Made by a program: the position numbers and the translations under genes. Shown here one piece after another: positions 1 to 33,509 of a stretch of 64,000 nucleotides of DNA. Where the stretch lies: the NCBI GenBank assembly GCA_041665145.1, contig JBAYJK010000002.1:232339-296338 (forward strand), in the 5' to 3' direction. The notes beneath the pieces are model-generated. The model did no database searches, was not told the origin of the DNA, and saw only the letters and a list, made by a program, of their open reading frames with translations. The stretch's first letter is position 1. Each line of letters opens with the position of its first letter. The DNA is from Patescibacteria group bacterium. Its GTDB lineage: Bacteria; Patescibacteriota; Microgenomatia; UBA1406.

Positions 1-99
1 AACCAGTTTAATTCCGACACGCTCAAGCCTGCTAATAATTTCGCCGACAAGCCCGCGTGCCACGGTGTCAGGTTTGAGAACAATCAACGTTTGCTCCAT
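1..99 (-). CDS. ndk: nucleoside diphosphate kinase, N-terminal 33 codons (gene runs off the window start)
   Basis: Reverse-strand translation from the ATG at 99-97 reads [33 protein letters not shown]. This matches the conserved Ndk N-terminus (hhhKPDxVxRxLhGxIhxRhE). It is absent from the ORF track because it is truncated. Confidence 0.75.
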
Positions 100-126
100 T
101 TATAAATATTTAATTAATAATTACTA

Positions 127-151
127 CTTTAGACTTTAGACTTTAGACTTT
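127..151. repeat. heptamer tandem repeat AGACTTT x3 upstream of ndk
   Basis: Perfect copies at 131-137, 138-144 and 145-151. Related TACTTT words occur at 160-185 and 4130-4172. Confidence 0.9.
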
Positions 152-190
152 CCTTTATACCTTCTACTTTTTACTTTAGACTTAACTATG

Positions 191-10265: not shown

Positions 10266-10408
10266 AATCGCACTTATAATAGCAGACGTGAAAAAAATGT
10301 CAACACCAGTAGTGATTGAGCAATGTACTTGACAAATAAAAAGCATTGTACATAATGAATTAAGCGCAGTATTTTTATATTAGAAATCATTAATTAACAT
10401 TACATTAA

Positions 10409-11854: not shown

Positions 11855-11876
11855 TAATTTAAAAACAAATAAGAAT

Positions 11877-12905
11877 ATGAGAATATTAGGTAGCATAGCA
11901 AAAAATGTAGCTAAATTAGCCCTATATTCCTATATTCCTATATTCCTATATTCTTTTGTATCTACTGTACATGCTCAAGCAAATTTTTCCATAACCGCGT
12001 TTCCGGCAATAATCGATCAGAGAGTCGAGCCCAATCAACAAACACGGCTACTTGTTCAATTCAAGAATAATTCTGATAAAACAATTATCGGATCAGTAAA
12101 GGTGGCGAACTACACTATCAAGAACAAAGAAGGCGATATTATGTTGGTCGATGATCCGAACGTTAAGCTGAAATATGCAGCCGCATCATGGATAACTCCC
12201 GATGTTGATCAGATTGCAATACCAGCCAATAACTATGTAGCGGTCAATCTCACGGTGAAAACACCCGCAGAACTTAATACCTGTGGGAACTATGCAATCG
12301 CCTATTTCGAATACGATCAAGGACTCCAACCCGGCGCATCGGCTATTACACAATCATCTTCAACACTTGCCGCAAAGATTGGATCGCTTATAAACTTAAG
12401 CACAGTAAGTAAGAGTTGCGTTGAGAAAGTTACTGTTTCGAGCTTTAAGTATCCGGGTTTTCTTGAATTCGGTCCGGTAAAAGTTGACTTTGATCTTTTG
12501 AATTCGGGAAATGTACACGCACAGCCTATGGGAAAACTTGTATTGAGAGATATGCTGAATAATGTTGTTGAAGAAGTGAAACTAAAGGATCAACGCATAT
12601 TCCCGGAGACAGCCAAAGCATATTCAGGCAAGATCGGACCCCAATGGCTATTGGGTCGTTTTGCCATCGAATTGAAAGCCGTATACGGAGAGAATAACAC
12701 CCCACTTACACATACCGCTTACTTATGGATAATCCCATGGCGGCTTGTTGTCGTAGTGCTTCTCGCGCTCTTGATAGTTGCAATAATACTGAGGAGTATA
12801 TTCGGCAAAGTTGTACATCGTGAAGAAGAGCTGGAAACTAAGCTCAAAGAGGAAGAAAAAGAGATTGATGAGCTCAAGAAAATACTTCGTGGAAAAAAAG
12901 AGTAA
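11877..12905 (+). CDS. secreted surface protein with C-terminal membrane anchor, DUF916/DUF3324-like architecture
   Basis: 342 aa. It has a signal peptide (…VSTVHA), a DUF916-like N-domain (FSITAFPAIIDQRVEPNQ…FKNNSDK…AASWITPD), a C-terminal TM (LVVVVLLALLIVAIIL) and a charged coiled tail. Confidence 0.5.
   Translation: MRILGSIAKNVAKLALYSYIPIFLYSFVSTVHAQANFSITAFPAIIDQRVEPNQQTRLLVQFKNNSDKTIIGSVKVANYTIKNKEGDIMLVDDPNVKLKYAAASWITPDVDQIAIPANNYVAVNLTVKTPAELNTCGNYAIAYFEYDQGLQPGASAITQSSSTLAAKIGSLINLSTVSKSCVEKVTVSSFKYPGFLEFGPVKVDFDLLNSGNVHAQPMGKLVLRDMLNNVVEEVKLKDQRIFPETAKAYSGKIGPQWLLGRFAIELKAVYGENNTPLTHTAYLWIIPWRLVVVVLLALLIVAIILRSIFGKVVHREEELETKLKEEEKEIDELKKILRGKKE
11921..11952 (+). repeat. octamer tandem repeat CCTATATT x4 in signal-peptide codons
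   Basis: Four perfect copies at 11921-11952 encode LYSYIPIFLYS within the signal peptide of ORF 11877..12905. Confidence 0.95.
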
Positions 12906-13821
12906 ATTCTTTATATTTCTTATAGGAATTGCCGGCAGTCTCGGTGGCATCTATACAGCGAAGTTCCCCATTACTCAACACAGGTCCCCTGAAGCTCGTC
13001 AAGTGCTCGCTGAAGTAGATGTATCAGCTTCAGTAGGTTATGCCCCAGTTGCGTATACATTGTTCGGGTACACCTCTTCACTTGCCCTCGTTAAGCTTGA
13101 GGGTGTAGGTGTTTCTGAGGAAACTCACGCACGATCAGATGGTTATTTTGAATTCACAAACTTTTATGCCCCGCGAAACAGCAATGAATTCTGTTTGACA
13201 CCGATTGACACTGACCAGCTTGTCGGCACACCTTTGTGCATTGTCGCCCCCGTAGACGTGCAAGGTAAGCGATTTGGGCCCTATTTGCTCTCACCGACGA
13301 TCTCAGTAGCCACTGGCAATCCCCAAACCGGGCAATCCGATGCAGTATCAGGCAAAACGATACCCGGAACACTTGTTACCATCAATACCTTTGATGATCC
13401 GGATCGTCAAACACTCGCACTTGTTCCACATGCCTACGCAGCACGAAGCAAAAAAATTACAGCAACATCAAATGCAGACGGAAGTTTTAGTACACAGATA
13501 ACAGCTGAACAATCCGGAAAGATACGGGTTTTCGCGCAGTCTGTTTTTGAATCTCAAAAAACACCAAAAAGTAACACACTAACACTCACTATTTTTAGCG
13601 CATGGTTCACCGCTTTCATGCTTATGCTGGGATTATTGAGGAACCTGATCAATTGGAACATAATTATATTATTGCAGGTTAGTGTTCTGTTGTTCATTCT
13701 CTATAAACGGATCCATATGCATCATGTCTACCGACATAAGCAACGCGCATTGTTGTTACGCAGACAAAATCTTCCAATGATCGAGCCCGAACGGGAATTG
13801 GTGAAGATTAATAGAACTTAA
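12868..13821 (+). CDS. membrane protein with carboxypeptidase-regulatory-like (Ig-like) domains
   Basis: N-terminal TM (FFIFLIGIAGSLGG). SDGYFEFTNF and ADGSFSTQI motifs are typical of CarboxypepD_reg-like beta-sandwiches. C-terminal TMs are present. The ATG at 12868 (or the GTG at 12889) is preferred to the track start at 12811. Confidence 0.55.
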   Translation: MSSRKYFVEKKSKFFIFLIGIAGSLGGIYTAKFPITQHRSPEARQVLAEVDVSASVGYAPVAYTLFGYTSSLALVKLEGVGVSEETHARSDGYFEFTNFYAPRNSNEFCLTPIDTDQLVGTPLCIVAPVDVQGKRFGPYLLSPTISVATGNPQTGQSDAVSGKTIPGTLVTINTFDDPDRQTLALVPHAYAARSKKITATSNADGSFSTQITAEQSGKIRVFAQSVFESQKTPKSNTLTLTIFSAWFTAFMLMLGLLRNLINWNIIILLQVSVLLFILYKRIHMHHVYRHKQRALLLRRQNLPMIEPERELVKINRT

Positions 13822-14230
13822 GTCGCACACCTTCTGTTGCTTTAGTTCCGTTTACCAGTGCTTCTACGAAATAATCCCCTTTTAGGCTTGTGTAAGCGTC
13901 AAACACAGCTCTACCATACGTATCAGTGGTGGATTGGACTGACTCCATGGTGAGTTCTTTGGTATAGTCGAGTACTACTTGTTTGCCCGGAACTCCCCTT
14001 CCCTGATTGTTCAGTAGAAAAACTGTGATACGTATTCGGTCATTGTTGTTGGCAAGCGCTTGCAATGGGCTAAGAAAGATATACGAATTATCTACTGAAA
14101 ATGAAGCCTCAGTTCCTACACCGCTTGCACGGCTTTGGAACAAGAAACGTACATTCAGCGAGAAGCTTAAGAGTAAAAGTAGTAGCAGCAATCCAAGCAA
14201 CATCACACTCGACTTACGAAGTAGTTCCAT
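13808..14230 (-). CDS. small secreted/anchored protein with bacterial Ig-like (Big_1/invasin-like) domain
   Basis: 140 aa with an N-terminal hydrophobic leader (LLGLLLLLLLL). The motif GRGVPGKQVVL…TDTYGRAVFDAYTS is typical of Big-type Ig folds. Confidence 0.5.
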   Translation of the reverse strand: MELLRKSSVMLLGLLLLLLLLSFSLNVRFLFQSRASGVGTEASFSVDNSYIFLSPLQALANNNDRIRITVFLLNNQGRGVPGKQVVLDYTKELTMESVQSTTDTYGRAVFDAYTSLKGDYFVEALVNGTKATEGVRLKFY

Positions 14231-14653
14231 ACATCCATTATATACGGTGGAAATCGGTTAGCAACAGACACTTAATACCGCAGGGTAACAGCAAATTTCA
14301 ATCAGCAAAAAGGCTTAGCAGCACAGATGCCCAAATGCTATTCGTTGCATAAATGCTTTCACCTACCCTAAGACCTTTCTTAAAAAGCGCGAAAATACAG
14401 AGAGTGTATTTCACAAAAACAGGTAGATGTTCTCAATCTATTGCAAGAAATTGCCCGAATTATGATCAGAATAGATGCAGTTCGTTATTACTATTATATA
14501 TATGCTATAGGATTGTAGTACAGTTTGATGCATTTGTAGAAGGCAGAAAAGTTTACGGGAATATGTAGAAATTCGTGAAAATACTACTACAGGATGTTAT
14601 ATGATGTTTTGAGCTACTATAACTAAGTATATCAATATAGTCACAAATGCCTC

Positions 14654-14682
14654 TTGACAATTAATCTCTCTCTATTAATAAT
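14654..14682 (+). promoter_or_regulatory. sigma70-type promoter of the giant-protein locus
   Basis: TTGACA at 14654-14659, a 17-nt spacer, then AATAAT at 14677-14682. The ATG at 14692 is only 9 nt downstream, so the leader is very short or absent. Confidence 0.5.
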
Positions 14683-14691
14683 GTACTTAAT

Positions 14692-15189
14692 ATGGATAAC
14701 CAGTATAATTTGTATAATTTCGAGTTCAAATTTGCAGACTATCTCCAAGCCAAGAAATATGGTCAGGTTACTGTCAAAAGCTACATCAGTGACTTGCATT
14801 TATTTCTTGAGTGGCTAGCTCAAGTGATAGACATGCAGTCAATAAGGCTTTCTGTCAGCCCCGAGCTTGCAGTGGTACAGTTAATGACTGTTCCAACGCT
14901 CCATGGATATTTTTCAGATCTGATTGCACGAAAAGCGCCAAATAAAACAGTTCTGAGACGGTTGAGTGGCTTACAGTTATTTTGCACGTTCTGTATCGAT
15001 CAACAATGGATAACCGTGAATCCTATCAAAGAACTCCGAAAAGCGCTTTACCCGGCCCGTCAAAACAATCCGTTTTCTGTCATGTCTGAGTTCAAAACCT
15101 TTCTACAATCTGAGCACACTTCAACCTCAACAATAAAAAATTATCTGGCCGATATCAGAGAGCTTATTAAAATTACAAGTTCAATCTAA
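14692..15189 (+). CDS. tyrosine-recombinase core-binding (phage-integrase SAM-like N-terminal) domain protein, no catalytic domain
   Basis: 165 aa. Residues 10-115 follow the XerC/D CB-domain pattern (F..YL…TVKSYISDLHLFLEWL … LRRLSGLQLFCTFCIDQQWITVNP). The last 35 aa start a second CB domain (FKTFLQSEHTSTSTIKNYLADIRELI) and then hit a TAA. Confidence 0.7.
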   Translation: MDNQYNLYNFEFKFADYLQAKKYGQVTVKSYISDLHLFLEWLAQVIDMQSIRLSVSPELAVVQLMTVPTLHGYFSDLIARKAPNKTVLRRLSGLQLFCTFCIDQQWITVNPIKELRKALYPARQNNPFSVMSEFKTFLQSEHTSTSTIKNYLADIRELIKITSSI

Positions 15190-15195
15190 CCAAAC

Positions 15196-15360
15196 ATGAT
15201 TGCACGTTTTCATCGCGTACTTAAGTCGGTAGTTTCCTATTTGGAGCTTCTTGATCCTGCAAAGGAAGGATCAGCATATTTAAAAAGAGAATTGGCCAGA
15301 CGAGGGCAAACCAATACAATGTCCATAGGTCTCAGAGGCAAAATGCTATTTTTGAAGTAA
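15196..15360 (+). CDS. 54-codon ORF between two in-frame TAA stops (doubtful as an independent gene)
   Basis: An ATG at 15196 and a TAA at 15358-15360, in the same frame as both flanking ORFs. I recognise no motif. Confidence 0.15.
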   Translation: MIARFHRVLKSVVSYLELLDPAKEGSAYLKRELARRGQTNTMSIGLRGKMLFLK

Positions 15361-15372
15361 CGACAGTTTTTC

Positions 15373-18300
15373 ATGACAGAGAACCTCTTTTCGCCAGAGA
15401 AAGTAAGCAACTATATCGCTGCATTGCGACAAAGTGGTAATTCTGAGGCTACAATTAAACGAAAACTGTCGTCCGTATCTAAATTTGCTCAATGGGCGCT
15501 ACAAAAAGGTATAATTACAAGCGAAGAACTTAAGCATTTGGAGTCTGAATCTGCTAAACTCCGTTCCGAGTTCGCACCTCAGCAAACCCATGTTCAGCCT
15601 CAACACGAACCAAAGCCTTTTGAGAAAGCCCAAAACCTGAAAAAGTTTTTATCGCCTCAACAGTATTTTCTTGTTACACGGCGCCATTTGCTCGCAACTG
15701 TCGGAACAATTGTGCTTTTGTTCGGTTTTGCTGTTGGATTGTATAATCAATTTTTCAGCAAGGCATCAATTAATCTTGCTTACCCATCGAGCCCGACCAG
15801 AGCGGGAAGAATTTTGAACTTTCAAGGTTTTCTTACCGACAGTTCCGCGACCCCGATTACCGCTCCCATCAATATGCGCTTCAGATTGTATGACGACCCT
15901 TCTGCTGGAACAATGCTCTATGATTCAGGAACCTGCTCGATTACACCTGACATAGCCGGAGGAGTTGTGAACGTTATGGTAGGTACGAATACGCCTGCTG
16001 GGTACAGCTGTGGCGCTGAAATTGACACTGATACATTTACTAGAAACACGAACGTATATTTAGGTGTGACTGTTGGAGGTGATCCAGAGATGGGTCCGCG
16101 TCAACAAGTAGCAAATGTAGGTTACGCAATAAACTCAGAAACACTACAAGGCTTGCCACCAGGGACAGATAAATCCACCATTCCCTTTATCAATCAATTT
16201 GGTAACTTGCTAATTGCCACGTCTACCCCCGGTATACGTTCAACACTGTCAAGTGAGACCTTCCAGATCTCAAGCGCCAACTCACTCACTCTCATGTCAG
16301 CCGGTGCTGGTGACATAACACTGAATGCAACTCAGAGCGGTGCCATTAAGTTCATAACAGCCAACTCTTCAGGTAATCAGATACAAGCGTCAGACGTTAA
16401 CCTTACTTCAGGTAGCTTGTATTATGGTTACGTTGGTAATGACCTTGGTGGATACAACTTACTGCAATTGCAAAGCGGTTCTGTGCCTGAAGACCAATTC
16501 ACCGTAAGTTCTTCTGGTCAAGGGTACTTTGCCGGAAATGTTGGAGTAGGAACTACCAATCCCTCAGCCCGTTTACATGTTGCAGGTAACCTTAAGGTGG
16601 ACAGCTATGCTACTGTTTCAGCAGGACTTAACGTAGGATATTCCACAATGTTACCGGGCGGAGGAAATGGTGTATTCTCAGGACGTGTCGGCATCGGCAT
16701 CTCGAATCCGACATACCTGTTGGATGTCCAGGGAGGTGCGGGTGTTGTTGGACAATTCAGCGGACGGGTAATTGGTGCGGGAGGACTTAATTCTAACGAG
16801 TTCGTAACCGTATCTCAATTAACCGCAGCTTCTCTCTGGCAGGAAAATTCAGGAGCACTCTCCCCTGTTCACATAACCAATGATTTGCTTATTGGCCGTA
16901 TTGCCACGCCTTCAGCCGCAACACACGATTACTTCCAAGTATTCGGAACCGGAGCAACTGCCGGGGATGCGTCTTCTTCTGGTATTTTAACACTTGGTAC
17001 AAACCGATCATCTGGACTTATTCATACCGAACGCATGCTTCCTCTTGTTCTAGGCAATGCAACCACCGGGTCAGTCCAGTTATCACCTAAAGGCACGACG
17101 GGATTGTTTGTTGCAGGAAATGGTAATGTCGGAGTGGGAACGATTGATCCGGCAGCTTCACTTGACGTAAACGGATTGATAAAAGTGCTCGGGACTGCGG
17201 CAGGAGGAATACAATTCGGAACCACAGGACAAGGTCAAATTTACCGAAACGGGTCATCCGGAGATCTGTACTTTACACCCCAAGCGGGGCACAACTTTTT
17301 AGTAGATAGCGGCAATGTAGGAATAGGAACAACCACACCAGGTAGTCCATTACAAGTTAATGGCTCAGCCGCCCTCGGGTACTCTGCTGCAACCGTCGGA
17401 CCGGCAAACGGACTTGCTGTTTCGGGAAATGTAGGAATAGGAACAACAAGTCCCGCTCAAAAATTGAACGTCGTGGGAAACATACAAGTCGAGGATGCAA
17501 ATAACAGGTATATTGGCTTTGCAAATGGTACCGGAACCTTTTACAGAGGGATGTATTCCAGTACTCTCACTTCGGGATTCGCGCTTCGCCTCATTACATC
17601 CGCTTCAGGCAATACTGACCCATTTATAATTCTTGGTTCCAGTGCCGGAGGTGTGACAAACGCGATGACGGTTAACGTGTTGACGGGAAACGTAGGTATC
17701 GGAACAACTGCTCCCACAGCTAAATTACAAGTTGTGGGTGATTTAAAAGTCGACTCGTATGCAACTGTTTCAGCAGGTCTTGCTGTTGGGTATTCATCTG
17801 TGGTTGCGGGCGGAGGAAATGGTGTATTCTCGGGAAGAATCGGCATCGGTACCTCTACCCCAGCCTATCTTCTCGACGTTTCAGGAGGGACAGGAATTGT
17901 CGGGCAATTTAGCGGCAGGGTAATTGGAGCGAACGGAATCAACTCAAATGAATTTGTAACCGTATCCCAATTGACCGCTAATTCATTGTGGCAAGAGAAT
18001 TTGGGTGCGCTCTCCCCTGTCCACATAACCGATGATCTGCTGATCGGCCGCATCGCCACACCTTCAGCTGCAACACAGGATTACTTCCAAGTATTCGGAA
18101 CGGGTACAACTGCAGGAGACGCATCTTCTTCCGGAATTTTGACTCTTGGGACCAATAGAGCTTCTGGAGTTATTGGTACCGCACGCATGCTTCCTCTGGT
18201 ACTTGGAAGTTCAACTACCGGCTCAGTTCAATTGTCACCAAAGGGTACGACGGGATTGTTTGTAGATGGTACGGGAAATGTGGGAGCGGGAACAAGCGCA

Positions 18301-21300
18301 CCACAAGACAAACTTGATGTTGCCGGCGCCATCAGAGTAACAACCAACACTGCTTTTTCAGCAAATGCCGGAGCAAGGTTTTATCGCCAATCTGATCTCG
18401 GGACGACGATTCAGGGTGTTACGGGCTCGACTAACGATTTTTCTCTTGTTACACCAGCGGGCCAGAGACTCATAGATAATCCAACAGGAACGAATAATTT
18501 AATACTTATACCCGTTGCAGCAGGCAATGTCGGCGTCGGCACCACTAGTCCAGTTGCACAACTAGATTTATACTCGAACGGCGCACGATACATCAGAGCG
18601 AAAAGCACCGTTGCCGACCTTGAAGTTGTCAGCGACAATAGCACAAACCCCTTACTGTATGTAAAAGGAACCGGCACCGCCGATCTCGTGAATATATATG
18701 ATAACACCACAAATGTTTTCACTATTCGTGACGGCGGGAATGTGGGAATTGGAGTAAGCAACCCAAGTTCTTTTAAATTGGAAGTTGCCGGAAATATCGG
18801 ACCTGAGGCACATAACACCCGCAGCCTCGGCTCATCTGCCCGATATTTCTTAAACGGGTACATTTCGAACATCTTCGCCGGTGCAACAGGCGTACAAGGC
18901 TTCTGGCAACGGTATGGACAAGCAGTTTCTCCGGCAAACATAACCGACGATCTGCTTATCGGAAACATCGCTACTCCATCTGCGGCAACAACAAATTACT
19001 TCCAAATATTTGGAACAGGTGCAAATGAAGGTGACGCATCTTCTTCCGGTATCTTGACTCTTGGAACCAATAGAACTTCAGGGATTATTCATACGGAGCG
19101 CATGCTTCCATTGGTGTTGGGAAGTTCAACTACCGGCTCAGTTCAATTGTCACCAAAAGGTACGACGGGATTGTTTGTAGATGGTACGGGAAATGTGGGA
19201 GTGGGAACTGTCTCGCCGATTGGAAAATTACAAATTGTAGGCGATGAAGTCAGAGTCGGAACAGCCGGAACAGTCGATTATGCAGCAGGCGACGGCGACT
19301 TGTACATTCAAGATGTATTAGAAGTTGACGGGACTCTTTTTGGGACAGAAATCAACCGAGGGTTATCAATAACAACGAACTTCGGTCGAGATACAACCGG
19401 ATTAGCCGAAGTACAAGCAGGAGTTACTAATAGTGTCACAGGATATGGGATGTTCACCGTTTATGGAAACGGTACAGGAGCAGCACCGGGACCATACGCA
19501 GACTTCAGCTTTCCTGGAACTACGTACGCCAAAATCGCTACATCAGGAACCACAAGTCTTGCCTTAATGTCAGGCGGCAATGTTGGTATAGGAACAACGA
19601 GTCCGATAACAGCTCTTCATTTTGGTGTCGCAGCAGGAACATTCGCAGCAAGCGGTTTGTCTTTTGGCGACGGTGACACGGGTTTCTATGAAAGTTCGGA
19701 TGATAATTTCATTTTCCGCGCAGCAGGAACTGACAGAATGACGTTCAATGGCGGTTCCGGATTCTGGAATATTCTTGGAACAACGACAGGTGGAGTTGGT
19801 ATACAAGCTGCGGCAGGAAGTGCCACAGTCCCGGTATATGCATTCGGCGATGACAGTAATACCGGTATAGGTCACGCGGGAGCTGACATTCTATCTCTAA
19901 TAGCAGGTGGCACGAATGTATTGAATGTGACTGCAGGAAATGTGGGTATCGGAACTACAAATCCAGCAAGCAACTTACATGTTGCAGTAGCCGGATCTTC
20001 TATTTTAACTCTTGAACGGGTTGATGCATCTGTTTCAGCTAATGATCCTGTCGGAAAACTTCAGTTTTATGCACATGACAGCTCTACGACAACCAATTTC
20101 ATTGTTGCAGACATTGAAGCACAAGCGACAAACACTATTGGCACCGATATCAATCCGGGAAGACTTATTTTCAGAACAACTCCAACAACAATTACAGCAA
20201 CACCAATCGAAAGAATGCGAATAAATGAAGATGGAAATGTGGGTATCGGAATCACAACCCCCGCGGCAAAACTTGACATTAACGGCAATCTTCAGGTTGG
20301 ATCATATGCCTCTGTTTCTGCCGGTCTCGCTGTTGGGTATTCATCTATGGTAACGGGCGGAGGAAATGGTGTGTTCTCAGGTAGGATCGGTATTGGTACC
20401 ACTACCCCAGCCTATCTTCTCGACGTTTCAGGAGGGACAGGAATTGTCGGACGGTTCAGTGGCCGTGTCGTTGGAGGTGAAGCAATAAGCGCAAATGAGT
20501 TTACTACGCTCGGGCAGATAGCCGCCGGTGCGGGCCAATATTGGCAGAGGTTATCCGGAGTTCTCTCCCCAACTTTTATTACCGATGATATGATTGTTGG
20601 ACGGGTTTCTACACCGTCAGCCGCAACGGATAATTACTACCAAATCATTGGATCTGGCACAAACGCGGGAGATGCATCATCTTCCGGAATTTTGACTCTT
20701 GGGACCAATAGGACATCTGGGATTATCCATACCGAACGTATGCTTCCTCTAATTTTAGGAAGCACAACTACCGGATCAATCCAATTGTCACCGAAAGGAC
20801 TTGCCGGATTATTTGTTGATCAGTTTGGAAACGTGGGAATCGGAACAACAAGTCCCGGTGCAACTTTAGATGTTGTAGGTAATCTCCGTGTTACCAATGC
20901 CTCTGTAACACCCTTACAATTCGGACCCGCTACAAATCTGGCAACCGACAATAGCTATATTCTCGTAAACAACCGTGCCCGATTTGGATACAATGGAACT
21001 TCCCAAGCGATTGCTATAGATGATAATGGTTCAAACAAGCACTTTATGATCTCCAATGGAGGAGCAGAAAGAATGCGAATTGACAGCCTTAACGGTAATG
21101 TAGGAATCGGAATAACCAATCCGACAGCCAAACTTCACGTCGCCGGAAACTTGAAAGTTGATTCTTACGCCACTGTCTCCGCTTCTCTTTCAGTTGGAAC
21201 ATTTAACGCTCCTGTAGGACCGGGAAACGCTGTGTTTTCGGGAAACGTGGGAATCGGAACAAGTGCGCCCGCTGCACTTCTCGCCATAGTACCCCCTTCC

Positions 21301-24300
21301 GGAGCAGCAGATGGATTCGGATTACGACTGCACAACGGAGGCGGTGGGAATACCTGGGAACTGAAAGCAGGAAGTCCGGGTATCAATAATAGCTTTTTCA
21401 CTTTGAAGGATATCACCAGTGGTAATACCCGGCTCACGGTTGATAACTCCGGTTATCTCGGTGTTGGAACTACCAGCCCCGGAGCTCTTCTTGATGTTGC
21501 CGGAAACATGAGATCAACTACGGGAACACTGCAGGTCGGCAACACCACAAATGCAGCATACAATAGAATGGGTACGGCCGCTACTGCACAGGGACTAAAT
21601 GCATCAGACGATCTGGTTATCGGGGATGACTTGGAAGTTCAAGGAACAATTTATGGAACTGTTGTCGGAGTTCCTATGGTTGGATTCACCCCAGGATCTA
21701 TCATTTATACCGGTCCAACCGGAGCGCTTGCACAAGATAATCTTAATTTCTTTTGGGACAGCACTAACCAGCGAATGGGACTGGGAACATCAACACCTTC
21801 TGCCCAATTACATCTCAGCAAAAATATCGAATCGCTTGGTGCTTACAATAATCCGCATGGTGGAATCGGTCTGTATCAAAACAGAATCACTCAATCCGAA
21901 GCTATTAATACATGGTCTGCAAACAATGTAACTTTCACCGCAAATTCAGTAGCTGCCCCCAATGGAGAAACGACCGCAGATACCATAACCAGCACTGTCG
22001 CAAACGGTTATGCTTATAACGGCACCACCGGGGGTACGGTCAGCGGTAACACGTATACATTCTCCTTTTGGGCACGAACCGCATCGGGTAATCAAACAAT
22101 GAGGTACAGTATCGCGGAATGCGGATATGATGGCGGCAATCTTACTACCAGCACCGTCACTCCGACGTGGCAGAGATATTCAGTAACCAGAAGCAGTTGG
22201 ACAAACGGAGCCGGAAGCCCGTGCCCGATTATCTATCCCGTCTCGGGCGGGACCGGTTCTATATATGTATGGGGTGCACAAAACGAAACAGGCGTAACTG
22301 TAGCCGGACCGTACGCAAAAACGTCAGGCACAGCAATAACAGGATCCAATGGCATCGTTGCATCAGCTTCAACCGGGAATTCGCTGTTTTATGGAAATGT
22401 TAACATTGCCGGTTATGCAACAGCTTCCGCGTCTCTCGCGGTCGGATACAATGGTGTACTTGGAGGGGTGGGAAATGGCGTATTCAGTGGTAACGTCGGA
22501 ATAGGAACTTCGGCACCTACATCAAAATTACATGTGTACCGGGCGGAAGCAACTGGAACAAACCTCGTGCTTTCAAATATACAAAGTGTACCGGCAAATG
22601 GTGGGGCAAGTGTAATTTCTCGGATATCTGCAGGCGCATACACCAGTGATTTTGAACAAAACAACGGAAGCACGGGTCCATTCAGATATGGCACATATCT
22701 TGATACAAACGTCGTAAATAACTACGTAACAGCAAGTGGTGCATATGGGAATATGAACTTTGTTACTAATGGTGCAATAGCCATGCGCGTCACCGGGGGC
22801 AATGCGGCGGGAAATGTGGGAATCGGAACAACAACCATCGGAAGCAGGTTGCAAGTGAATGGCACAACCGCCCTCGGGTACTCCGCTTCAACCACCGGAC
22901 CGGCAAACGGGCTTGCAGTTTCGGGAAATGTGGGGATCGGAACAACTGCACCCGGACAACTTCTTACTGTTGGTGCTCCGGTAGGAACATACGGAGGTGC
23001 CGGAACAGCATATACCATGGTCAACGGAGCAAATAACACAACTATTAACGGCGGTATGATGAGAATTTTTAGTACCGATACTGCAACTACCGATTTTGGT
23101 GGATCAGTTGCGTTCGGAGGAAATTATTCAGGCACTTCGAATAGCATTGATTTTGCAAGCATTGCCGGAAGGAAACAGGCAAGCATGACCAGCGGTGGTT
23201 ATTTGCAATTTGCCACTCGCGTTGATACCGGAAATATGACTGAAAAGATGCGGATTGCAAGCAATGGTAATGTCGGCATTGGGACAACAAACCCTGCAGC
23301 TAAGCTACAGATAGCAGGCGATTTGAAAGTAGATACGTATGCGACAATATCCGCTTCCCTTTCGGTGGGTACATACAATGCCTATGCCGGACCCGGAAAT
23401 GGTGTTTTCTCAGGAATGGTCGGAATCGGGACATCTGCTCCAACATCAAAATTACACGTAGTCGGAAGTTTGAATGGCAACATTTTTACTGTTAATGATG
23501 GAACATCCGACCTTGTTACCGTCGCCAGTGCGCAAACAACAATCAATAATCCGACTTCATTCACCTCGTCCGGTGATGTGTCTATCGCGTATGACATTAA
23601 TTTCACTAACCCGACTTCTTCATTTATTAAGTCCGCAGCGCCTTTGACTATTGCGTCAGGCGAAACATTTAATTCTTCAGATTTGACATTGAAATCATAT
23701 ATGAACGGCGACATCGTAATGGACGCCGGAACAAGTGGAAGCACCGGTACTATAACTTTTTATGATGCATATGTTAAAGCCGCAACAGTCACCACACCGA
23801 TAGATTTTTCACAGGCCAGTGCTGACATCAATGCATTCCGCACCAATTTTATCTCCAACCAGACGATCATCGGAGCACTTAACTCGTTGGCTGGAGGAAG
23901 CAGTGGTTCGTGGATTTATACTGGCGCATCCAATTACTATTTGTATCCGAATGATTACGCAAACGCCAAGGTGGGAATCGGTAACAGTAACCCGGTAAAC
24001 CGTTTGTCTGTTACCGGTGCTGCTTCCATCGGTTCGGCAGCGTACAATGTTGCTGCGCCGGCAAATGGACTGATTGTCGAAGGTAATGTGGGCATCGGCA
24101 CAACAAATCCAGCGAGTAAGTTGGATATCGATCCCAATTCCAATTCGCTTGGGATTCGTCTACGAGGACTGGCAGAGACTACCGAAATTGCAGATATGTT
24201 TGTCGGAGCAAATGGAAACCTTATTCTAACCACCCGCAACACAGGTGCATCTGCAGCATATGTTGAAATAGATCCTGAGGACGACGGATATGGCTTAGTT

Positions 24301-27300
24301 CTCCGTGATTCAAATATCGGCTCAAGTGTCTACGCTAACATGTTCATGAACGACAGCGCAGGGGTTGACTATTTGAATATTATTACCAATACAACGAATA
24401 GTACGACCGGATTAGTTATACAAGACGGAGGAAATGTCGGCATCGGGACAACAATTCCAACTGAAAAACTCCATGTTGCAGGTACGGTACGAAGTAATTA
24501 TGAGTACACCACATCAGTAACTTTCACGGACGGCTGGGCTATTAATGATTACCAAAATGTCGTGCAGGTAACTCCAGGATCCGCTGGTGCTTCTGGTCTC
24601 TATGAAATTACGATTGATTCTACAAGAAATGGCTTAGCAGAATCATCAACATACCTTTCAGCTATCGATCACGCAAACGGAAACACATGGAGAGAAACAG
24701 GTGTTGTCAATGATAACTCGTATGTTGCGGGTAGTCGTTGTTTCACTGTTGACACTAATGGTAACTCTGGAGCAGCACAACTGAGAGTTCGTGCCTTACG
24801 GGCAAGCGCATCGTGTGGTACTACGGGAAACCTTGTTGTTAACGTAAAAATTCGTTCCATTGGCAGAAATACCGCATGGACTGCGCTAGCCGGCGGAGGA
24901 TCCGGAGCATCGGTTACCGGTTTCCAATCTATGGCGGGTCAATCTTGGAATTTGTACACCGGAAACCCGTATAGCGGTGCAGGAAATCCGGCAATAAGCG
25001 CTAACGCTTCAGGAAACGTCGGCATTGGAACAACCGCTCCTGTTGCAGCGCTGTCTTTAGGTGGCGGCGCAAACACTCTTCCCACCAACACAAAACTCTG
25101 GGTCTCGGGAGCAGCTACCGGACCAGGTTCGGCCATTCAATCACGTATTAGCATCGGCGCCGATACAAATCTTGATTATGGCGCATATATGGCAGAGATA
25201 AATGCTGACGGAGGCGCGGGTCAAATAGCACAATTTGGCACGCGGTCTGGTGGAACAGATTTTGCAACTCTGAATTTGAGACAAGGAAATGTGGGTATCG
25301 GAACAACAAGTCCCGGATCATTGTTGGAATTAAGCAATGCCGTTGCCGATGGTCCTCAATTAATAATTAGAAACACCGGGACAAACGCCACACACGCAGG
25401 ATTGAGAATAAACACCGACAGCACCACAAGCGCCGACTCAAGAACCTGGTTGATGGGAACAAACAATACAGCATACGGCGATCTTGCATTTATTCAAAGT
25501 AACGCAAAAGGTGGCGACCCGATAGCCGCAGGAACAACAAGATTGTATATCGAAAATACGGGCGACATCGGTATCGGAAACACGGCTCCCGCATATAAAT
25601 TAGATGTTACCGGCGACATTCATACGGTAGGTGGAACAACGGGAGTCTTTGTTGCGGGCGGATGTACCGGCGGGTCATGTGGTTACACTCAGGGAGCAGA
25701 ATTATGGAATCATTTTGGTGCTGACGCTTTAAGTTTCGGCCCGGGAATTACCGGCGTTCTTACCAATGCAAGCGATGTATTTATCGGAGATTCTCTCGTA
25801 GTTGGTGGAAGTATGTACGGAAATGCGACAGAAGCAAACTACATTAATATAGCGTCAGCTGGCGTGGGAATGGTGCTCAGAGGCTCTGCTGCAATTGGAG
25901 CAACCGGAGACCCAAGTTCCATGTTTAACGTGGTAACCGGTGCATCAAAGGGTGTGACCATCGGAAATGCAGCCGCTTATACCAGTGTTGCCGGCCCGGC
26001 AAAAGGTATGATTATCGAAGGAAATGTCGGTATCGGTTCCACCAACCCTGCCTCCAAACTCTCTATGAATTACATTACCAACGGCGCAGGCGCTCCGGCA
26101 GGAACCCCCTCTGCTTCAGGAGGAAGTATGGCTACGGGGACATATTATTATGTTGTCACCGTTGTCGGAGCCGACGGGGAAACACAACAATCCGCACAGT
26201 CCGCCGCAAAAGCCGTAACCGGCCCGACCGGTTCGGTTGCATTAAGTTGGACTAACGTTACCGGAGCTGCATATTACAAAGTGTATAGAACTACAACATC
26301 TGGATCGTATGGTGCTACAAGCCTGATTGCCACCGGAACCTGTGCATTTGTTAAAGCAACAAGTTGTACTGACACTGCAGCGAGCACTTCAACCGGCGCA
26401 CCTCCAGCTGCTGCAAATGAGAATGCAAATATGTTTGCGGTTGACAACCTGGGTAATGCCACCACAACCGGAACGTTAACAATAGCTGGCAAGAGTCAAA
26501 CGGGAGGAACTGCACAAATACTCGGATTCGACCAAAAGAATTGGACTCCGATTGAACTCATGGGTGCGTCCGGCTCACGTACAAACACTTCTGTCTGTGT
26601 CAGCTGGTTCGGACAAGGTGGTACTAGCTGCGACGGAAAAATCGACGCCGGAACTGTCGACCCTCCATACACAATCGACGGTGAGAAATTTGCTACATAT
26701 TTGACGGCAATGACCGGCATAAAAGAAGAGACCACCGGAACTGTTGAAGTATCAAGCTACGTGCCGAATGTCGGATATCGCGCGATTGTTGATTTTAAAA
26801 CTGCCGAAAAGGGTTCTGATATATGGTTATTCTCTCAGGTCACGAATTTGGGAGCTAATATGGAAAAAATGATTGTGCTTCTTACTCCATCAAACAACGC
26901 ACGAACATGGTATAGCGTCGACATGAGTAATTACACGCTTACATTCTTCAGTTCCCGACCGACCACCATTTCATATCGCTTGAGCGCTCCACGGTTTGAC
27001 TCGGAAGAATGGGCAAATACCCGAGCTCCAGGTGCAATCGGTACCGGATTTATTATCGACTCGACAAAATATGCGTTGAATTTGAATAACTCAGGCGATC
27101 TCATGGAAGTGAGCACGCGTATTCAACAGACAACAGACGACAATCAACAAACAACGTTTAACCTCGTTGACACTGCAGGAAATATACTCACAGAGGTTGC
27201 AAGCTATGCACAAGCGACCATCGCTAAAATCGAGGTAGGGATAGTTACGACACAACAACTTGTCGTCAAGCAAGGTGCGACATTTCTTTCAGACGTAAAT

Positions 27301-28221
27301 GTATCTGGAACAATCACTGCTAAGAATATTCAATCAGACAACATACTGCAACTGGCATCAGACACTGCAACCCTCACTACCAACTATCAACTACTAACTT
27401 CCAAAGTAAATGATCTTCAAGGAACAATGGATGCAATCGTTTCAAAAGATGTAGCAAGCAGCGAGTATTATATGAGCGTTGATGGATTAACCACTATGAA
27501 TCTGACTGTCCAAGATACCGCAAATCTCAGTAGAGTTATTGCAACAAGTGCTCAAATCGGTTCAATTCAGATAAATGGGAATACCTTGAGCTCAGCTCTT
27601 TCCGATCTTCACTTTAACGCACTCGCTCAAATCACCTTCTTTGATAATGCAGTTACTATAGCCAAAGATGGGACAATAACAACCACAGGAACACTTATTG
27701 CAAAAGGCGGAGTCAAGACAGATACCATAACAACCACAAAGCCAGGAAACGATTTGGTAGTAACGCTCGCGAATGATCAGTCTGCAAGTGACTCGAGCCA
27801 ACTGGTAACCGATAACGGACAACCTAAATTCAAAATACAAAACACTGATGGAACAGACGTCGCCTCTATCGATGCGTCGGGTTCGGCATACTTTGCCGAC
27901 GGCGTCACATTCGATAAAAACATCGCGAGTTCTTCTGCGATAATTGATGCAAATACCGCATGGCAACAGTACGGTGTAGCAACTGCGGCAATCAGAACAA
28001 ATGGTGAATCATCAGGCCAGGCTGTTATACCGGCTGGAACAACGGAATTAACCATTCTTAATACCAAAGTAAAAGGAAATTCGTTAGTATATGTAACAGC
28101 ACTTTCTTCTACGAATAACCAAACCATCTATGTGGAAGCGAAGAAAGAAGGAGCGTGGTTCAAAATCAAGATCGATCAGCCGATCAGTACAGAAGTAACG
28201 TTTAATTGGTGGATATTATAA
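15373..28221 (+). CDS. giant (4282 aa) N-terminally membrane-anchored fibrous surface protein built from tail-fibre-like repeats
   Basis: The N-terminus looks like the second half of a CB/SAM-like domain (VSNYIAALRQSGNSEATIKRKLSSVSKFAQWALQKG). One TM follows (LLATVGTIVLLFGFAVGLY, about nt 15685-15750). I count 24 GNVG(I/V/A)G motifs plus about 9 degenerate ones, each followed by xxP…KL(H/D/Q)V. There are four large internal modules, a CBM-like module (…YVWGAQNE), an FN3-like module (YYYVVT…YYKVYR) and a coiled C-terminal region. Confidence 0.9.
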   Translation: MTENLFSPEKVSNYIAALRQSGNSEATIKRKLSSVSKFAQWALQKGIITSEELKHLESESAKLRSEFAPQQTHVQPQHEPKPFEKAQNLKKFLSPQQYFLVTRRHLLATVGTIVLLFGFAVGLYNQFFSKASINLAYPSSPTRAGRILNFQGFLTDSSATPITAPINMRFRLYDDPSAGTMLYDSGTCSITPDIAGGVVNVMVGTNTPAGYSCGAEIDTDTFTRNTNVYLGVTVGGDPEMGPRQQVANVGYAINSETLQGLPPGTDKSTIPFINQFGNLLIATSTPGIRSTLSSETFQISSANSLTLMSAGAGDITLNATQSGAIKFITANSSGNQIQASDVNLTSGSLYYGYVGNDLGGYNLLQLQSGSVPEDQFTVSSSGQGYFAGNVGVGTTNPSARLHVAGNLKVDSYATVSAGLNVGYSTMLPGGGNGVFSGRVGIGISNPTYLLDVQGGAGVVGQFSGRVIGAGGLNSNEFVTVSQLTAASLWQENSGALSPVHITNDLLIGRIATPSAATHDYFQVFGTGATAGDASSSGILTLGTNRSSGLIHTERMLPLVLGNATTGSVQLSPKGTTGLFVAGNGNVGVGTIDPAASLDVNGLIKVLGTAAGGIQFGTTGQGQIYRNGSSGDLYFTPQAGHNFLVDSGNVGIGTTTPGSPLQVNGSAALGYSAATVGPANGLAVSGNVGIGTTSPAQKLNVVGNIQVEDANNRYIGFANGTGTFYRGMYSSTLTSGFALRLITSASGNTDPFIILGSSAGGVTNAMTVNVLTGNVGIGTTAPTAKLQVVGDLKVDSYATVSAGLAVGYSSVVAGGGNGVFSGRIGIGTSTPAYLLDVSGGTGIVGQFSGRVIGANGINSNEFVTVSQLTANSLWQENLGALSPVHITDDLLIGRIATPSAATQDYFQVFGTGTTAGDASSSGILTLGTNRASGVIGTARMLPLVLGSSTTGSVQLSPKGTTGLFVDGTGNVGAGTSAPQDKLDVAGAIRVTTNTAFSANAGARFYRQSDLGTTIQGVTGSTNDFSLVTPAGQRLIDNPTGTNNLILIPVAAGNVGVGTTSPVAQLDLYSNGARYIRAKSTVADLEVVSDNSTNPLLYVKGTGTADLVNIYDNTTNVFTIRDGGNVGIGVSNPSSFKLEVAGNIGPEAHNTRSLGSSARYFLNGYISNIFAGATGVQGFWQRYGQAVSPANITDDLLIGNIATPSAATTNYFQIFGTGANEGDASSSGILTLGTNRTSGIIHTERMLPLVLGSSTTGSVQLSPKGTTGLFVDGTGNVGVGTVSPIGKLQIVGDEVRVGTAGTVDYAAGDGDLYIQDVLEVDGTLFGTEINRGLSITTNFGRDTTGLAEVQAGVTNSVTGYGMFTVYGNGTGAAPGPYADFSFPGTTYAKIATSGTTSLALMSGGNVGIGTTSPITALHFGVAAGTFAASGLSFGDGDTGFYESSDDNFIFRAAGTDRMTFNGGSGFWNILGTTTGGVGIQAAAGSATVPVYAFGDDSNTGIGHAGADILSLIAGGTNVLNVTAGNVGIGTTNPASNLHVAVAGSSILTLERVDASVSANDPVGKLQFYAHDSSTTTNFIVADIEAQATNTIGTDINPGRLIFRTTPTTITATPIERMRINEDGNVGIGITTPAAKLDINGNLQVGSYASVSAGLAVGYSSMVTGGGNGVFSGRIGIGTTTPAYLLDVSGGTGIVGRFSGRVVGGEAISANEFTTLGQIAAGAGQYWQRLSGVLSPTFITDDMIVGRVSTPSAATDNYYQIIGSGTNAGDASSSGILTLGTNRTSGIIHTERMLPLILGSTTTGSIQLSPKGLAGLFVDQFGNVGIGTTSPGATLDVVGNLRVTNASVTPLQFGPATNLATDNSYILVNNRARFGYNGTSQAIAIDDNGSNKHFMISNGGAERMRIDSLNGNVGIGITNPTAKLHVAGNLKVDSYATVSASLSVGTFNAPVGPGNAVFSGNVGIGTSAPAALLAIVPPSGAADGFGLRLHNGGGGNTWELKAGSPGINNSFFTLKDITSGNTRLTVDNSGYLGVGTTSPGALLDVAGNMRSTTGTLQVGNTTNAAYNRMGTAATAQGLNASDDLVIGDDLEVQGTIYGTVVGVPMVGFTPGSIIYTGPTGALAQDNLNFFWDSTNQRMGLGTSTPSAQLHLSKNIESLGAYNNPHGGIGLYQNRITQSEAINTWSANNVTFTANSVAAPNGETTADTITSTVANGYAYNGTTGGTVSGNTYTFSFWARTASGNQTMRYSIAECGYDGGNLTTSTVTPTWQRYSVTRSSWTNGAGSPCPIIYPVSGGTGSIYVWGAQNETGVTVAGPYAKTSGTAITGSNGIVASASTGNSLFYGNVNIAGYATASASLAVGYNGVLGGVGNGVFSGNVGIGTSAPTSKLHVYRAEATGTNLVLSNIQSVPANGGASVISRISAGAYTSDFEQNNGSTGPFRYGTYLDTNVVNNYVTASGAYGNMNFVTNGAIAMRVTGGNAAGNVGIGTTTIGSRLQVNGTTALGYSASTTGPANGLAVSGNVGIGTTAPGQLLTVGAPVGTYGGAGTAYTMVNGANNTTINGGMMRIFSTDTATTDFGGSVAFGGNYSGTSNSIDFASIAGRKQASMTSGGYLQFATRVDTGNMTEKMRIASNGNVGIGTTNPAAKLQIAGDLKVDTYATISASLSVGTYNAYAGPGNGVFSGMVGIGTSAPTSKLHVVGSLNGNIFTVNDGTSDLVTVASAQTTINNPTSFTSSGDVSIAYDINFTNPTSSFIKSAAPLTIASGETFNSSDLTLKSYMNGDIVMDAGTSGSTGTITFYDAYVKAATVTTPIDFSQASADINAFRTNFISNQTIIGALNSLAGGSSGSWIYTGASNYYLYPNDYANAKVGIGNSNPVNRLSVTGAASIGSAAYNVAAPANGLIVEGNVGIGTTNPASKLDIDPNSNSLGIRLRGLAETTEIADMFVGANGNLILTTRNTGASAAYVEIDPEDDGYGLVLRDSNIGSSVYANMFMNDSAGVDYLNIITNTTNSTTGLVIQDGGNVGIGTTIPTEKLHVAGTVRSNYEYTTSVTFTDGWAINDYQNVVQVTPGSAGASGLYEITIDSTRNGLAESSTYLSAIDHANGNTWRETGVVNDNSYVAGSRCFTVDTNGNSGAAQLRVRALRASASCGTTGNLVVNVKIRSIGRNTAWTALAGGGSGASVTGFQSMAGQSWNLYTGNPYSGAGNPAISANASGNVGIGTTAPVAALSLGGGANTLPTNTKLWVSGAATGPGSAIQSRISIGADTNLDYGAYMAEINADGGAGQIAQFGTRSGGTDFATLNLRQGNVGIGTTSPGSLLELSNAVADGPQLIIRNTGTNATHAGLRINTDSTTSADSRTWLMGTNNTAYGDLAFIQSNAKGGDPIAAGTTRLYIENTGDIGIGNTAPAYKLDVTGDIHTVGGTTGVFVAGGCTGGSCGYTQGAELWNHFGADALSFGPGITGVLTNASDVFIGDSLVVGGSMYGNATEANYINIASAGVGMVLRGSAAIGATGDPSSMFNVVTGASKGVTIGNAAAYTSVAGPAKGMIIEGNVGIGSTNPASKLSMNYITNGAGAPAGTPSASGGSMATGTYYYVVTVVGADGETQQSAQSAAKAVTGPTGSVALSWTNVTGAAYYKVYRTTTSGSYGATSLIATGTCAFVKATSCTDTAASTSTGAPPAAANENANMFAVDNLGNATTTGTLTIAGKSQTGGTAQILGFDQKNWTPIELMGASGSRTNTSVCVSWFGQGGTSCDGKIDAGTVDPPYTIDGEKFATYLTAMTGIKEETTGTVEVSSYVPNVGYRAIVDFKTAEKGSDIWLFSQVTNLGANMEKMIVLLTPSNNARTWYSVDMSNYTLTFFSSRPTTISYRLSAPRFDSEEWANTRAPGAIGTGFIIDSTKYALNLNNSGDLMEVSTRIQQTTDDNQQTTFNLVDTAGNILTEVASYAQATIAKIEVGIVTTQQLVVKQGATFLSDVNVSGTITAKNIQSDNILQLASDTATLTTNYQLLTSKVNDLQGTMDAIVSKDVASSEYYMSVDGLTTMNLTVQDTANLSRVIATSAQIGSIQINGNTLSSALSDLHFNALAQITFFDNAVTIAKDGTITTTGTLIAKGGVKTDTITTTKPGNDLVVTLANDQSASDSSQLVTDNGQPKFKIQNTDGTDVASIDASGSAYFADGVTFDKNIASSSAIIDANTAWQQYGVATAAIRTNGESSGQAVIPAGTTELTILNTKVKGNSLVYVTALSSTNNQTIYVEAKKEGAWFKIKIDQPISTEVTFNWWIL
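16570..17142 (+). repeat. giant-gene internal module, copy 1 (~190 aa)
   Basis: RLHVAGNLKVDSYATVSAGL…SSSGILTLGTNRSSGLIHTERMLPLVLG…LSPKGTTGLFVAGNGNVGVGT. Copy 2 starts 1152 nt downstream. Confidence 0.9.
17722..18294 (+). repeat. giant-gene internal module, copy 2
   Basis: KLQVVGDLKVDSYATVSAGL…LSPKGTTGLFVDGTGNVGAGT. Positions 18205-18293 match 19120-19208 at 87/89 nt by manual alignment. Confidence 0.9.
18901..19209 (+). repeat. giant-gene internal module, copy 3 (C-terminal half only)
   Basis: FWQRYGQAVSPANITDDLLIGNIATPSAAT…SSSGILTLGTNRTSGIIHTERMLPLVLGSSTTGSVQLSPKGTTGLFVDGTGNVGVGT. Confidence 0.9.
20269..20847 (+). repeat. giant-gene internal module, copy 4
   Basis: KLDINGNLQVGSYASVSAGL…SSSGILTLGTNRTSGIIHTERMLPLILGSTTTGSIQLSPKGLAGLFVDQFGNVGIGT. 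Confidence 0.9.
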
Positions 28222-33472: not shown

Positions 33473-33500
33473 GTAAGGGCGCGGCGTGACGCGCCCGTCT
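33473..33500. repeat. REP-like hairpin R1 just after the LamG stop
   Basis: GTAA-GGGCGCG-gcgtga-CGCGCCC-GTCT, a 7-bp GC stem with a 6-nt loop. It lies 4 nt after the stop at 33469 and upstream of the rayT-like ATG at 33510. Confidence 0.6.
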
Positions 33501-33509
33501 TGCACAAAT

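Follow-up and report, generated by a model that had tools for sequence, protein, structure and literature searches.

Within a 64,000-nucleotide stretch of a Patescibacteria genome (contig JBAYJK010000002.1 of assembly GCA_041665145.1, positions 232,339 to 296,338 of the forward strand; hereafter the window), three consecutive open reading frames (ORFs) share frame 1 and are interrupted solely by two TAA codons. ORF1 ends in what appears to be the first half of a core-binding (CB) domain of the type found in tyrosine recombinases, ORF3 encodes a giant protein that opens with what appears to be the second half, and a micro-gene, ORF2, lies between them (coordinates are collected in Table 1). We consider it probable, at roughly 70%, that this arrangement is a conserved three-gene operon of the Microgenomates, in which the second of two CB domains has been split by gene fission, ORF2 occupies the resulting gap, and ORF1 docks onto ORF3.

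A first-pass annotation of the window had drawn attention to the three co-framed ORFs; its coordinates were exact, and both of the junction peptides that it quoted are present. It offered four explanations: an ancestral gene now broken, programmed stop read-through, an insertion of ~190 nucleotides (nt), or a genuine small cytoplasmic partner accompanying a giant protein. The last of these is the one that our analysis supports. By comparison with related genomes the three ORFs read as separate genes, and not as a broken or read-through gene, because dozens of related species share the layout. What forms an uninterrupted polypeptide in some relatives corresponds in the window to adjacent, co-oriented genes, each with its own stop and start, an arrangement that identifies the event as gene fission with an intervening ORF.

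ORF1 and ORF3 carry complementary halves of a predicted core-binding domain

Pfam assigns residues 14-103 of ORF1 to a complete Phage_int_SAM_1 domain, which we term CB (SAM-like) domain 1, and finds a further, partial SAM-like match at residues 130-160, the first half-domain; the C-terminal end of the protein reads ...DIRELIKITSSI-TAA. Residues 7-46 of ORF3 align in turn with positions 44-83 of the 83-position Phage_int_SAM_1 profile. Running the CB profile on a conceptual fusion, as the first-pass annotation had proposed, gave one match for directly joined ORF1 and ORF3 that covers positions 3-83 of 83 (whole-protein E-value 1.4e-18), and the families PF02899, PF13495 and PF13102 match ORF1 as well as the fusion.

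Structure prediction is consistent with this assignment. The 106-residue, directly fused CB domain 2 was modelled by AlphaFold2 with a mean predicted local distance difference test score (pLDDT) of 92.1 and a predicted template-modelling score (pTM) of 0.85. When the model was compared with the PDB by Foldseek, it superposed on the integrase N-domain 3nrw with template-modelling scores of 0.80/0.81 and a root-mean-square deviation of 1.7 Å over 99 columns, and on lambda Int (1p7d) with a score of 0.69; the CB domains of lambda Int, XerA, IntI, Brujita Int and others were matched at a probability of 1.00. A single-chain model of ORF1, ORF2 and residues 1-70 of ORF3 was likewise mostly confident for CB domain 1 and for both halves of CB domain 2 (means of 83-91 over 10-residue blocks), and the informative part of its Foldseek search was a set of matches of ~106-111 columns to integrase and XerD structures. 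Pfam, AlphaFold2 and Foldseek agree with the earlier suggestion that the end of ORF1 and the start of ORF3 are two halves of one CB/SAM-like domain, and on profile and model evidence together we assign them as such.

A sequence search of the PDB with the ORF1-ORF3 fusion gave nothing significant, the top alignment across the junction being to chain 9i5v_14 at E = 0.28. This chain is a 401-residue protein deposited as 'Ribosome-associated translation inhibitor RaiA', of which the first ~100 residues align with the fused CB domain; its N-terminus looks SAM-like or CB-like, which is odd given the RaiA name.

Kinship with recombinases appears to be confined to the CB fold. The NCBIfam XerC and XerD models are matched over just their first ~100-120 positions, scoring 47 and 36 bits against cut-offs of ~330, and neither Pfam nor NCBIfam detects a catalytic Phage_integrase domain (PF00589, R-H-R-Y) in ORF1, ORF2 or the whole of ORF3. 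The label 'site-specific recombinase XerD' that JGI gives to ORF1 is accordingly wrong, because the catalytic recombinase domain is absent, and by this domain content none of the three proteins is a recombinase. In the NCBI entries for this Patescibacteria metagenome-assembled genome (MAG), ORF1 (WC775_04960) and ORF2 (WC775_04955) are both hypothetical proteins.

The split is shared by many Microgenomates species

To place the locus among its relatives, we scanned one genome per species for the N-terminal module of the ORF3 extracellular region, which returned 500 stretches; 80 loci were analysed. Protein searches place the locus in the Microgenomates of the candidate phyla radiation (CPR), including Roizmanbacteria, Woesebacteria and others. 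In 44 of the 80 loci CB domain 2 is split, at the same loop between helices 2 and 3 as in the window, a recurrence well beyond chance. ORF1 (~155-200 residues) ends in these loci after helix 2 with ...D[IV]xEF[LI]xI(I)[NS]S or a similar sequence, and the giant gene starts with its own methionine a few residues ahead of helix 3 (M..IN..TI+.YI..L...G.S...I.RKL.SV.KF..WA). ORF1 homologues at 54-79% identity share the same C-terminal end point, and the ATG of ORF3, conserved in all split loci, has no counterpart at that position in uninterrupted homologues.

Three further states were found. In a fused-single state (22 loci), CB domain 1 leads through a linker into the transmembrane helix and giant region; these loci have neither a second CB domain, whole or halved, nor ORF2. 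In a fused-double state, seen in four loci (L002, L072, L074 and L075) and in the homologues P0008, P0010, P0013, P0014 and P0020, both CB domains are uninterrupted and joined to the transmembrane helix and giant. The remaining ten loci have a giant with a half-domain and are taken up below. Aligning the locus with its homologues, a check proposed at first pass, had thus a divided outcome: uninterrupted relatives do exist, but 44 of the 80 loci are interrupted at one and the same loop. In a rough neighbour-joining tree of the extracellular module, the split state turns up in more than one deep clade, fused-single clades being nested between these, and since it spans these clades the split is evidently old and has been retained.

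Measured against P0008, P0010, P0013, P0014 and P0020, the window contains 186 extra nucleotides (15187-15372), made up of the ORF1 stop codon, a 6-nt spacer, ORF2 and a 12-nt spacer. When these are set aside, the C-terminus of ORF1 and the N-terminus of ORF3 abut in the helix 2-helix 3 loop, with a native-like loop length and zero residues lost. The insertion of ~190 nt offered as an explanation at first pass stands in an evolutionary sense only, as exactly these 186 nt that are extra relative to uninterrupted homologues.

That the gene was recently broken, or that a sequencing or assembly error created the interruptions, is a possibility raised by the existence of uninterrupted homologues, and one that we regard as practically negligible. 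A stretch of 3165 nt around the junction is identical in three independent assemblies (Logan SRR6484324, ENA ERZ27249449 and JGI 3300037810), the 12.8-kb ORF3 is still intact, and the split recurs in 44 loci from different species, where all three ORFs are under purifying selection.

Other genes, too, are found between ORF1/ORF2 and the giant gene. Long ORF2-ORF3 gaps contain genes for 23S_rRNA_IVP four-helix bundles in L042 (1735-2118) and L059 (3511-3891), a 235-residue ORF of 23S_rRNA_IVP type in L039 (721-1428), and a 154-residue ORF without family assignment in L020. Where ORF2 is lacking from a split locus, the gap may hold a 23S_rRNA_IVP gene (L019, 2941-3663), a NYN-domain gene (L062, 3371-3949), or ORFs of 188-278 residues that resemble the L062 NYN gene (L067, 2044-2880; L077, 3305-3871). 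Pfam confirmed the families in L042, L019 and L062, and the remainder were assigned by sequence similarity. The distribution of these genes suggests that small, cassette-like genes have landed in the gap repeatedly.

Many contigs that carry a cassette of Microgenomates type (for example L005, L008, L013, L015 and L021) are titled 'uncultured Gammaproteobacteria bacterium' in their records; these are MAGs from binchicken/SRP co-assemblies. Of two other such contigs, one is recorded as Micrarchaeia archaeon and the other as Melioribacter roseus. These names look like placeholders or mistaken assignments.

The shared reading frame of the three ORFs is coincidental

The first-pass annotation had attached weight to the common frame of the three ORFs, a weight that the homologous loci do not bear out, since frequencies of co-framing among them match chance. 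Among the 35 loci that possess ORF1, ORF2 and ORF3, a frame common to all is seen in 3 (L008, L042 and the window; 8.6%, against 11% expected), and ORF1 and ORF3 are in frame with each other in 16 of the 44 split loci (36%, against 33% expected). In L083 and L084, whose ORF2 is 80% identical, ORF1 is out of frame with both ORF2 and ORF3. In L088 and L089 the ATG of ORF2 overlaps the ORF1 stop (ATGA), with ORF2 of L088 lying in another frame, and in the Roizmanbacteria locus L001 there are overlaps at both junctions (ATGA and ATGcgTGA). Because frames vary among the 44 split loci and in the closest relatives, the shared frame in the window is due to chance.

This variation bears directly on whether programmed read-through, recoding of TAA or ribosomal bypass could yield one protein of ~4500 residues from the three ORFs. 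The co-framing in the window, with just two TAA codons between the ORFs, is what would be expected of such a product; the frames, however, are not the same in most of the homologous loci or in the closest relatives, and an ATG of its own begins every ORF3. In the window, 23 of the 32 large ORFs end in TAA, and the 4282 codons of ORF3 include no in-frame TAA. ORF2 is conserved as a separate protein that often overlaps the ORF1 stop in a different frame, and a search for a structured RNA signal found none, the predicted fold of 15170-15400 being no better than that of shuffled sequence (z = 0.02). For bypass in particular, ATC, the codon preceding the first TAA, is not matched by a landing codon ahead of 15373, and the gap is 186 nt long and holds a conserved coding gene, compared with a non-coding gap of ~50 nt in bypass of the T4 gene 60 type. 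A single recoded product is, in view of these observations, extremely improbable. The variable frames, the conserved ATG of ORF3, the use of TAA as a normal stop and the conservation of the split refute both the read-through and the broken-gene explanations advanced at first pass.

ORF2 represents a candidate micro-protein family

Homologues of ORF2 occupy the same position in ~34 related loci, and their conservation, together with the selection described below, reveals a protein-coding gene that the first-pass annotation had overlooked. Members of the family are basic proteins of ~50-65 residues (median isoelectric point (pI) 10.2) without a transmembrane helix, and consist of an N-terminal helix, the pattern ...L+..FDPAxEGxPY, a variable stretch of ~15-25 residues and a tail that is basic and rich in aromatic residues (RRKxxxR); in the window, DPAxEGxPY takes the form DPAKEGSAY. 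Between the window and L083, 42 of the 165 nt of ORF2 differ, distributed 11/3/28 over codon positions 1/2/3, and the changes amount to 23 synonymous and 11 non-synonymous codons; the other two frames have no such bias. This substitution pattern shows that ORF2 is a genuine gene on which purifying selection acts.

A profile search of 1.84 billion representative proteins (E <= 1e-3) recovered 128 members, nearly all of them stand-alone proteins of 47-83 residues and none fused to ORF1 or ORF3. The few long matches are translations of CRISPR repeats or other repeats, not fusions. Two proteins with a repeated FNPSIEGQPLQ, P0107 and P0166, look like CRISPR repeat arrays translated in error; false positives of this kind can mislead a search for DPAxEGxPY. 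ORF2 matched no Pfam, NCBIfam or PHROG family, and by these searches its family is one that has been undescribed and unnamed until now.

The start of ORF2 lies between -20 and +20 nt from the ORF1 stop in 30 of 34 loci, 14 of which overlap, a spacing by which ORF2 is read as translationally coupled to ORF1. The ORF2-ORF3 spacer is looser, at <=30 nt in 21 loci and >150 nt in 9. Across loci, sequence divergence of ORF2 tracks that of the host locus.

In L027 (2787-2936) and L059 (3274-3426), the ORF2 homologue ends straight after DPAxEGxPY and lacks the basic tail, a loss that a frameshift or an assembly error could explain, unless these are shortened variants. A resemblance of the ORF2 motif to the ORF1 linker sequence 'LYPARQNNPF' came from a bad alignment and was dismissed, as the linker is not conserved in other ORF1 proteins. 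MAFFT alignments in which partial homologues had been combined with the three-part concatenation were discarded, because they misplaced the rows for ORF2 and the ORF3 N-terminus onto CB domain 1.

The precision with which the interruption falls in a loop, with no residues lost, could also be the mark of an active mobile or self-splicing element (a group I or II intron, an intein, a miniature inverted-repeat transposable element or a homing-endonuclease cassette), with the 186 nt being removed at the RNA or protein level. The gap does accept insertions elsewhere, as the 23S_rRNA_IVP and NYN genes attest, and an ancient insertion may have created the split. An element that is active today is nonetheless highly improbable. 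Rfam returned nothing relevant at gathering score for the whole window, or at E up to 10 for 14300-15800, where no match was better than E = 7.6; the region folds no more stably than shuffled sequence; and searches for direct or inverted repeats flanking the insert gave only short chance matches, with no terminal repeats. ORF2 has no nuclease or Hint domain and diverges along with its host locus. The two in-frame stops exclude an intein, and at 186 nt the insert is shorter than known self-splicing introns.

ORF1 may dock onto the cytoplasmic end of a giant surface protein

ORF3 is organized as a half-domain, a linker, a single transmembrane helix and then an acidic extracellular region of ~4150 residues. 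A basic stretch, TRRH, precedes the helix, by which the protein is predicted to be oriented N-in/C-out, with its half-domain in the cytoplasm. The extracellular region opens with a conserved module (RILNFQGFLTD...PRQQIANVGYAINSETLQGLPPG); no Pfam domain was found in this part of the protein, and residues 142-209 give a weak NCBIfam match to Bdello_MAT_N, the N-terminal region of Bdellovibrio mosaic adhesive trimer fibres. Hydropathy analysis of ORF1 and ORF2 revealed neither a transmembrane helix nor a signal sequence.

In the model that we propose, gene fission within CB domain 2 has divided the N-terminal cytoplasmic module of a giant, fibre-like protein that is anchored in the membrane and exposed at the surface. 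ORF1 would dock non-covalently onto the cytoplasmic tail of ORF3, the two halves rebuilding a four-helix CB domain, and docking would give CB domain 1 the link to the giant that it has covalently in fused lineages. ORF2 may serve as a cytoplasmic partner of ORF1, possibly in assembly or regulation. We infer docking because the complementary halves are strictly adjacent, because fused homologues exist (a 'Rosetta stone' argument that is based on the 22 loci in which CB domain 1 is fused directly to the transmembrane helix and giant region), because the partners would share the cytoplasmic compartment, and because the fusion is confidently folded in our model.

Several observations weigh against this proposal. 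The confident model of CB domain 2 is of an artificial covalent fusion and not of two associating chains. In the three-part single-chain model the ORF2 segment reaches a pLDDT of just 38-55, because of which contacts of ORF2 are unreadable from it. Nine split loci have no ORF2, among them L013, where the gap is only 66 nt; ORF2 would accordingly accompany ORF1 and yet be dispensable for the split. Ten loci encode a half-domain giant with no ORF1 directly upstream, several of these being tandem paralogues behind another giant, so that the half-domain may act alone or share a distant ORF1.

In L009, L021 and L045 (~3-3977, and 3965 onward), the half-domain giant directly follows another giant (>1324 residues, with concanavalin/LamG-like motifs by eye), with no ORF1 or ORF2 between them. 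Either several giants share a single ORF1 in such genomes, or the half-domain functions by itself.

An alternative is that the genes are separate but the half-domains never reassemble, each being an independent helical hairpin that self-associates or binds other partners, and the split a tolerated relic. The ten giants without an adjacent ORF1 would fit such an interpretation, as would the fused-single lineages, which do without the entire second CB domain. Set against this, the halves have been kept together, adjacent to one another, in 44 loci across deep clades; each retains the consensus of its part of the Pfam profile; and the loop created by direct fusion has the length found in uninterrupted homologues, with the fusion predicted to adopt a compact CB fold. 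We therefore judge independent hairpins to be unlikely, and favor reassembly of the domain by docking of ORF1 onto ORF3.

A more speculative extension, to which we give little credence, treats the split as a switch instead of a scar. ORF1, whose basic CB-domain make-up could allow DNA binding, would be kept at the membrane through complementation of the half-domain on the tail of the giant fibre, co-translated ORF2 would compete with this docking or chaperone it, and events at the surface would be relayed to the nucleoid. Were this so, host contact, or the loss or turnover of fibres, would lead to capture or release of ORF1, and host-dependent CPR bacteria would have derived ToxR-like or anti-sigma-like signalling from a split recombinase domain.

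The operon lies in a putative surface-fibre locus

A promoter-like sequence, the best in the region, precedes ORF1 (Table 1), and a cctcTTGACA motif is found likewise 5' of ORF1 in L001. No terminator-like site was detected on the + strand between ORF1, ORF2 and ORF3, and the sequence at 14654-14682 is likely to be a single promoter for all three genes. The organism generally lacks Shine-Dalgarno motifs, which made analysis of such sites uninformative. A tRNA scan found none.

Table 1. Features of the ORF1-ORF2-ORF3 operon and its surroundings, in window coordinates (aa, amino acids).
Feature	Coordinates	Strand	Remarks
PaaX-like regulator	9525-10346	-	PaaX_M and PaaX_C domains; upstream of the surface-protein cluster
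Upstream ORF set	10409-13821	+	481, ~340 and ~336 aa; sizes kept in relatives (L002, 3559-7089; L088, 1-2106)
Big_1/Invasin_D3 small gene	13808..14230	-	Divergent neighbour; Pfam
Promoter-like site	14654..14682	+	TTGACA-17 nt-AATAAT, upstream of ORF1; 11/12 match
ORF1	14692..15189	+	165 aa; TAA 15187-15189; pI 9.1 (basic)
Predicted CB domain 2, first half (helices 1-2)	15076..15180	+	ORF1 C-terminus, aa ~129-163
ORF2	15196..15360	+	54 aa; TAA 15358-15360; pI 10.7 (very basic)
ORF3	15373..28221	+	4282 aa giant protein
Predicted CB domain 2, second half (helices 3-4)	15391..15552	+	ORF3 N-terminus, aa ~7-60
ORF3 transmembrane helix	15682..15744	+	Single, aa ~104-124; Kyte-Doolittle scan; position conserved in homologue alignment
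1747-aa protein	28226-33469	+	Six Laminin_G_3 stretches and DUF2341; downstream of the giant gene
225-aa ORF (GTG start)	33486-34163	+	Partial IS200-like Y1 transposase, PF01797 positions 60-121 only
737-aa protein	34549-36762	+	C-terminal Peptidase_S74 (endosialidase chaperone) domain

The divergent Big_1/Invasin_D3 neighbour is present also in L001, L002, L085-L089 and the JGI contig. Genes upstream of the cassette have weak cell-surface signatures: the only domains found in the set at 10409-13821 were a borderline WxLIP_PGBD (28.8 bits, cut-off 27.3) and a sub-threshold Big_5. Two of these ORFs, 11877-12905 and 12811-13821, overlap as listed, and the second probably starts further downstream. 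On the other side, the ORF with partial transposase similarity follows the two giant genes, ahead of the next gene of fibre-like type, and may be a degraded IS200/IS605 element. Peptidase_S74 chaperone domains, as in the 737-residue protein, are typical of trimeric fibres. Since the neighbours carry Big_1/Invasin_D3, Laminin_G_3 and Peptidase_S74 domains and weak cell-surface signatures, the cassette appears to lie in a surface-fibre or adhesin locus. Giant surface proteins of CPR bacteria are thought to mediate host attachment.

Relation to known systems and significance

In phage Aeh1, the two polypeptides made from nrdA-a and nrdA-b, genes separated by mobE, come together non-covalently to give a functional protein, neither RNA nor protein being spliced (Crona et al., 2011; PMC3045599). 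These 'genes in pieces' are the closest described precedent: in both cases a coding sequence that relatives keep whole has become two neighbouring genes of the same orientation, and a small, independent ORF lies in the gap. The phage system differs from ours in three respects. The intervening gene there is a mobile homing endonuclease, whereas ORF2 is a basic protein of 54 residues without a nuclease domain; the event there is recent, whereas the present arrangement is ancient and conserved over many species; and an enzyme is split there, as opposed to a small four-helix domain whose reassembly we infer.

Nanoarchaeum equitans, which has a small genome and is probably host-dependent, contains split protein genes whose halves are presumed to associate and are usually dispersed in the genome. 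Fission within conserved proteins is common to both cases, but the halves of CB domain 2 have remained within a single operon, where a conserved micro-gene separates them. Compared with the tyrosine recombinases (XerC/XerD, lambda Int and XerA; PF02899, PF13495 and PF13102), both CB domains agree in profile and fold matches. They differ in that a catalytic domain is absent, in that the CB domains are attached, covalently or through the split, to a transmembrane-anchored giant extracellular protein, and in that the second CB domain is divided over two polypeptides. The ToxR/CadC regulators have an N-terminal cytoplasmic domain of DNA-binding type, a single transmembrane helix and an extracytoplasmic C-terminal region, a topology that is the same as that predicted here. 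Their cytoplasmic domain is a winged helix rather than a CB domain, and their extracellular part is not a giant fibre; the likeness is a functional analogy only, by which the CB module might have a membrane-tethered, DNA-binding role of the ToxR type.

A literature search for this architecture in the CPR found no description of it. The phenomenon itself, gene fission with an intervening ORF, is known; what is new is its occurrence in a poorly studied protein family, together with an unnamed micro-protein family. For genome scans, the locus counsels caution, in that co-framed ORFs parted by stop codons alone need not mean recoding. For annotation, it indicates that proteins of ORF1 type, which lack a catalytic domain, nevertheless go by 'XerD' or 'site-specific integrase' in public records. 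More broadly, ~500 Microgenomates loci in species-representative genomes would encode giants with a cytoplasmic, recombinase-type CB module, which is found fused as a single domain, fused as a double domain, or split and accompanied by a micro-gene, three states that appear to be interconvertible. The split state would constitute a natural case of gene fission at the level of a domain, and may offer a simple pair for split-domain complementation.

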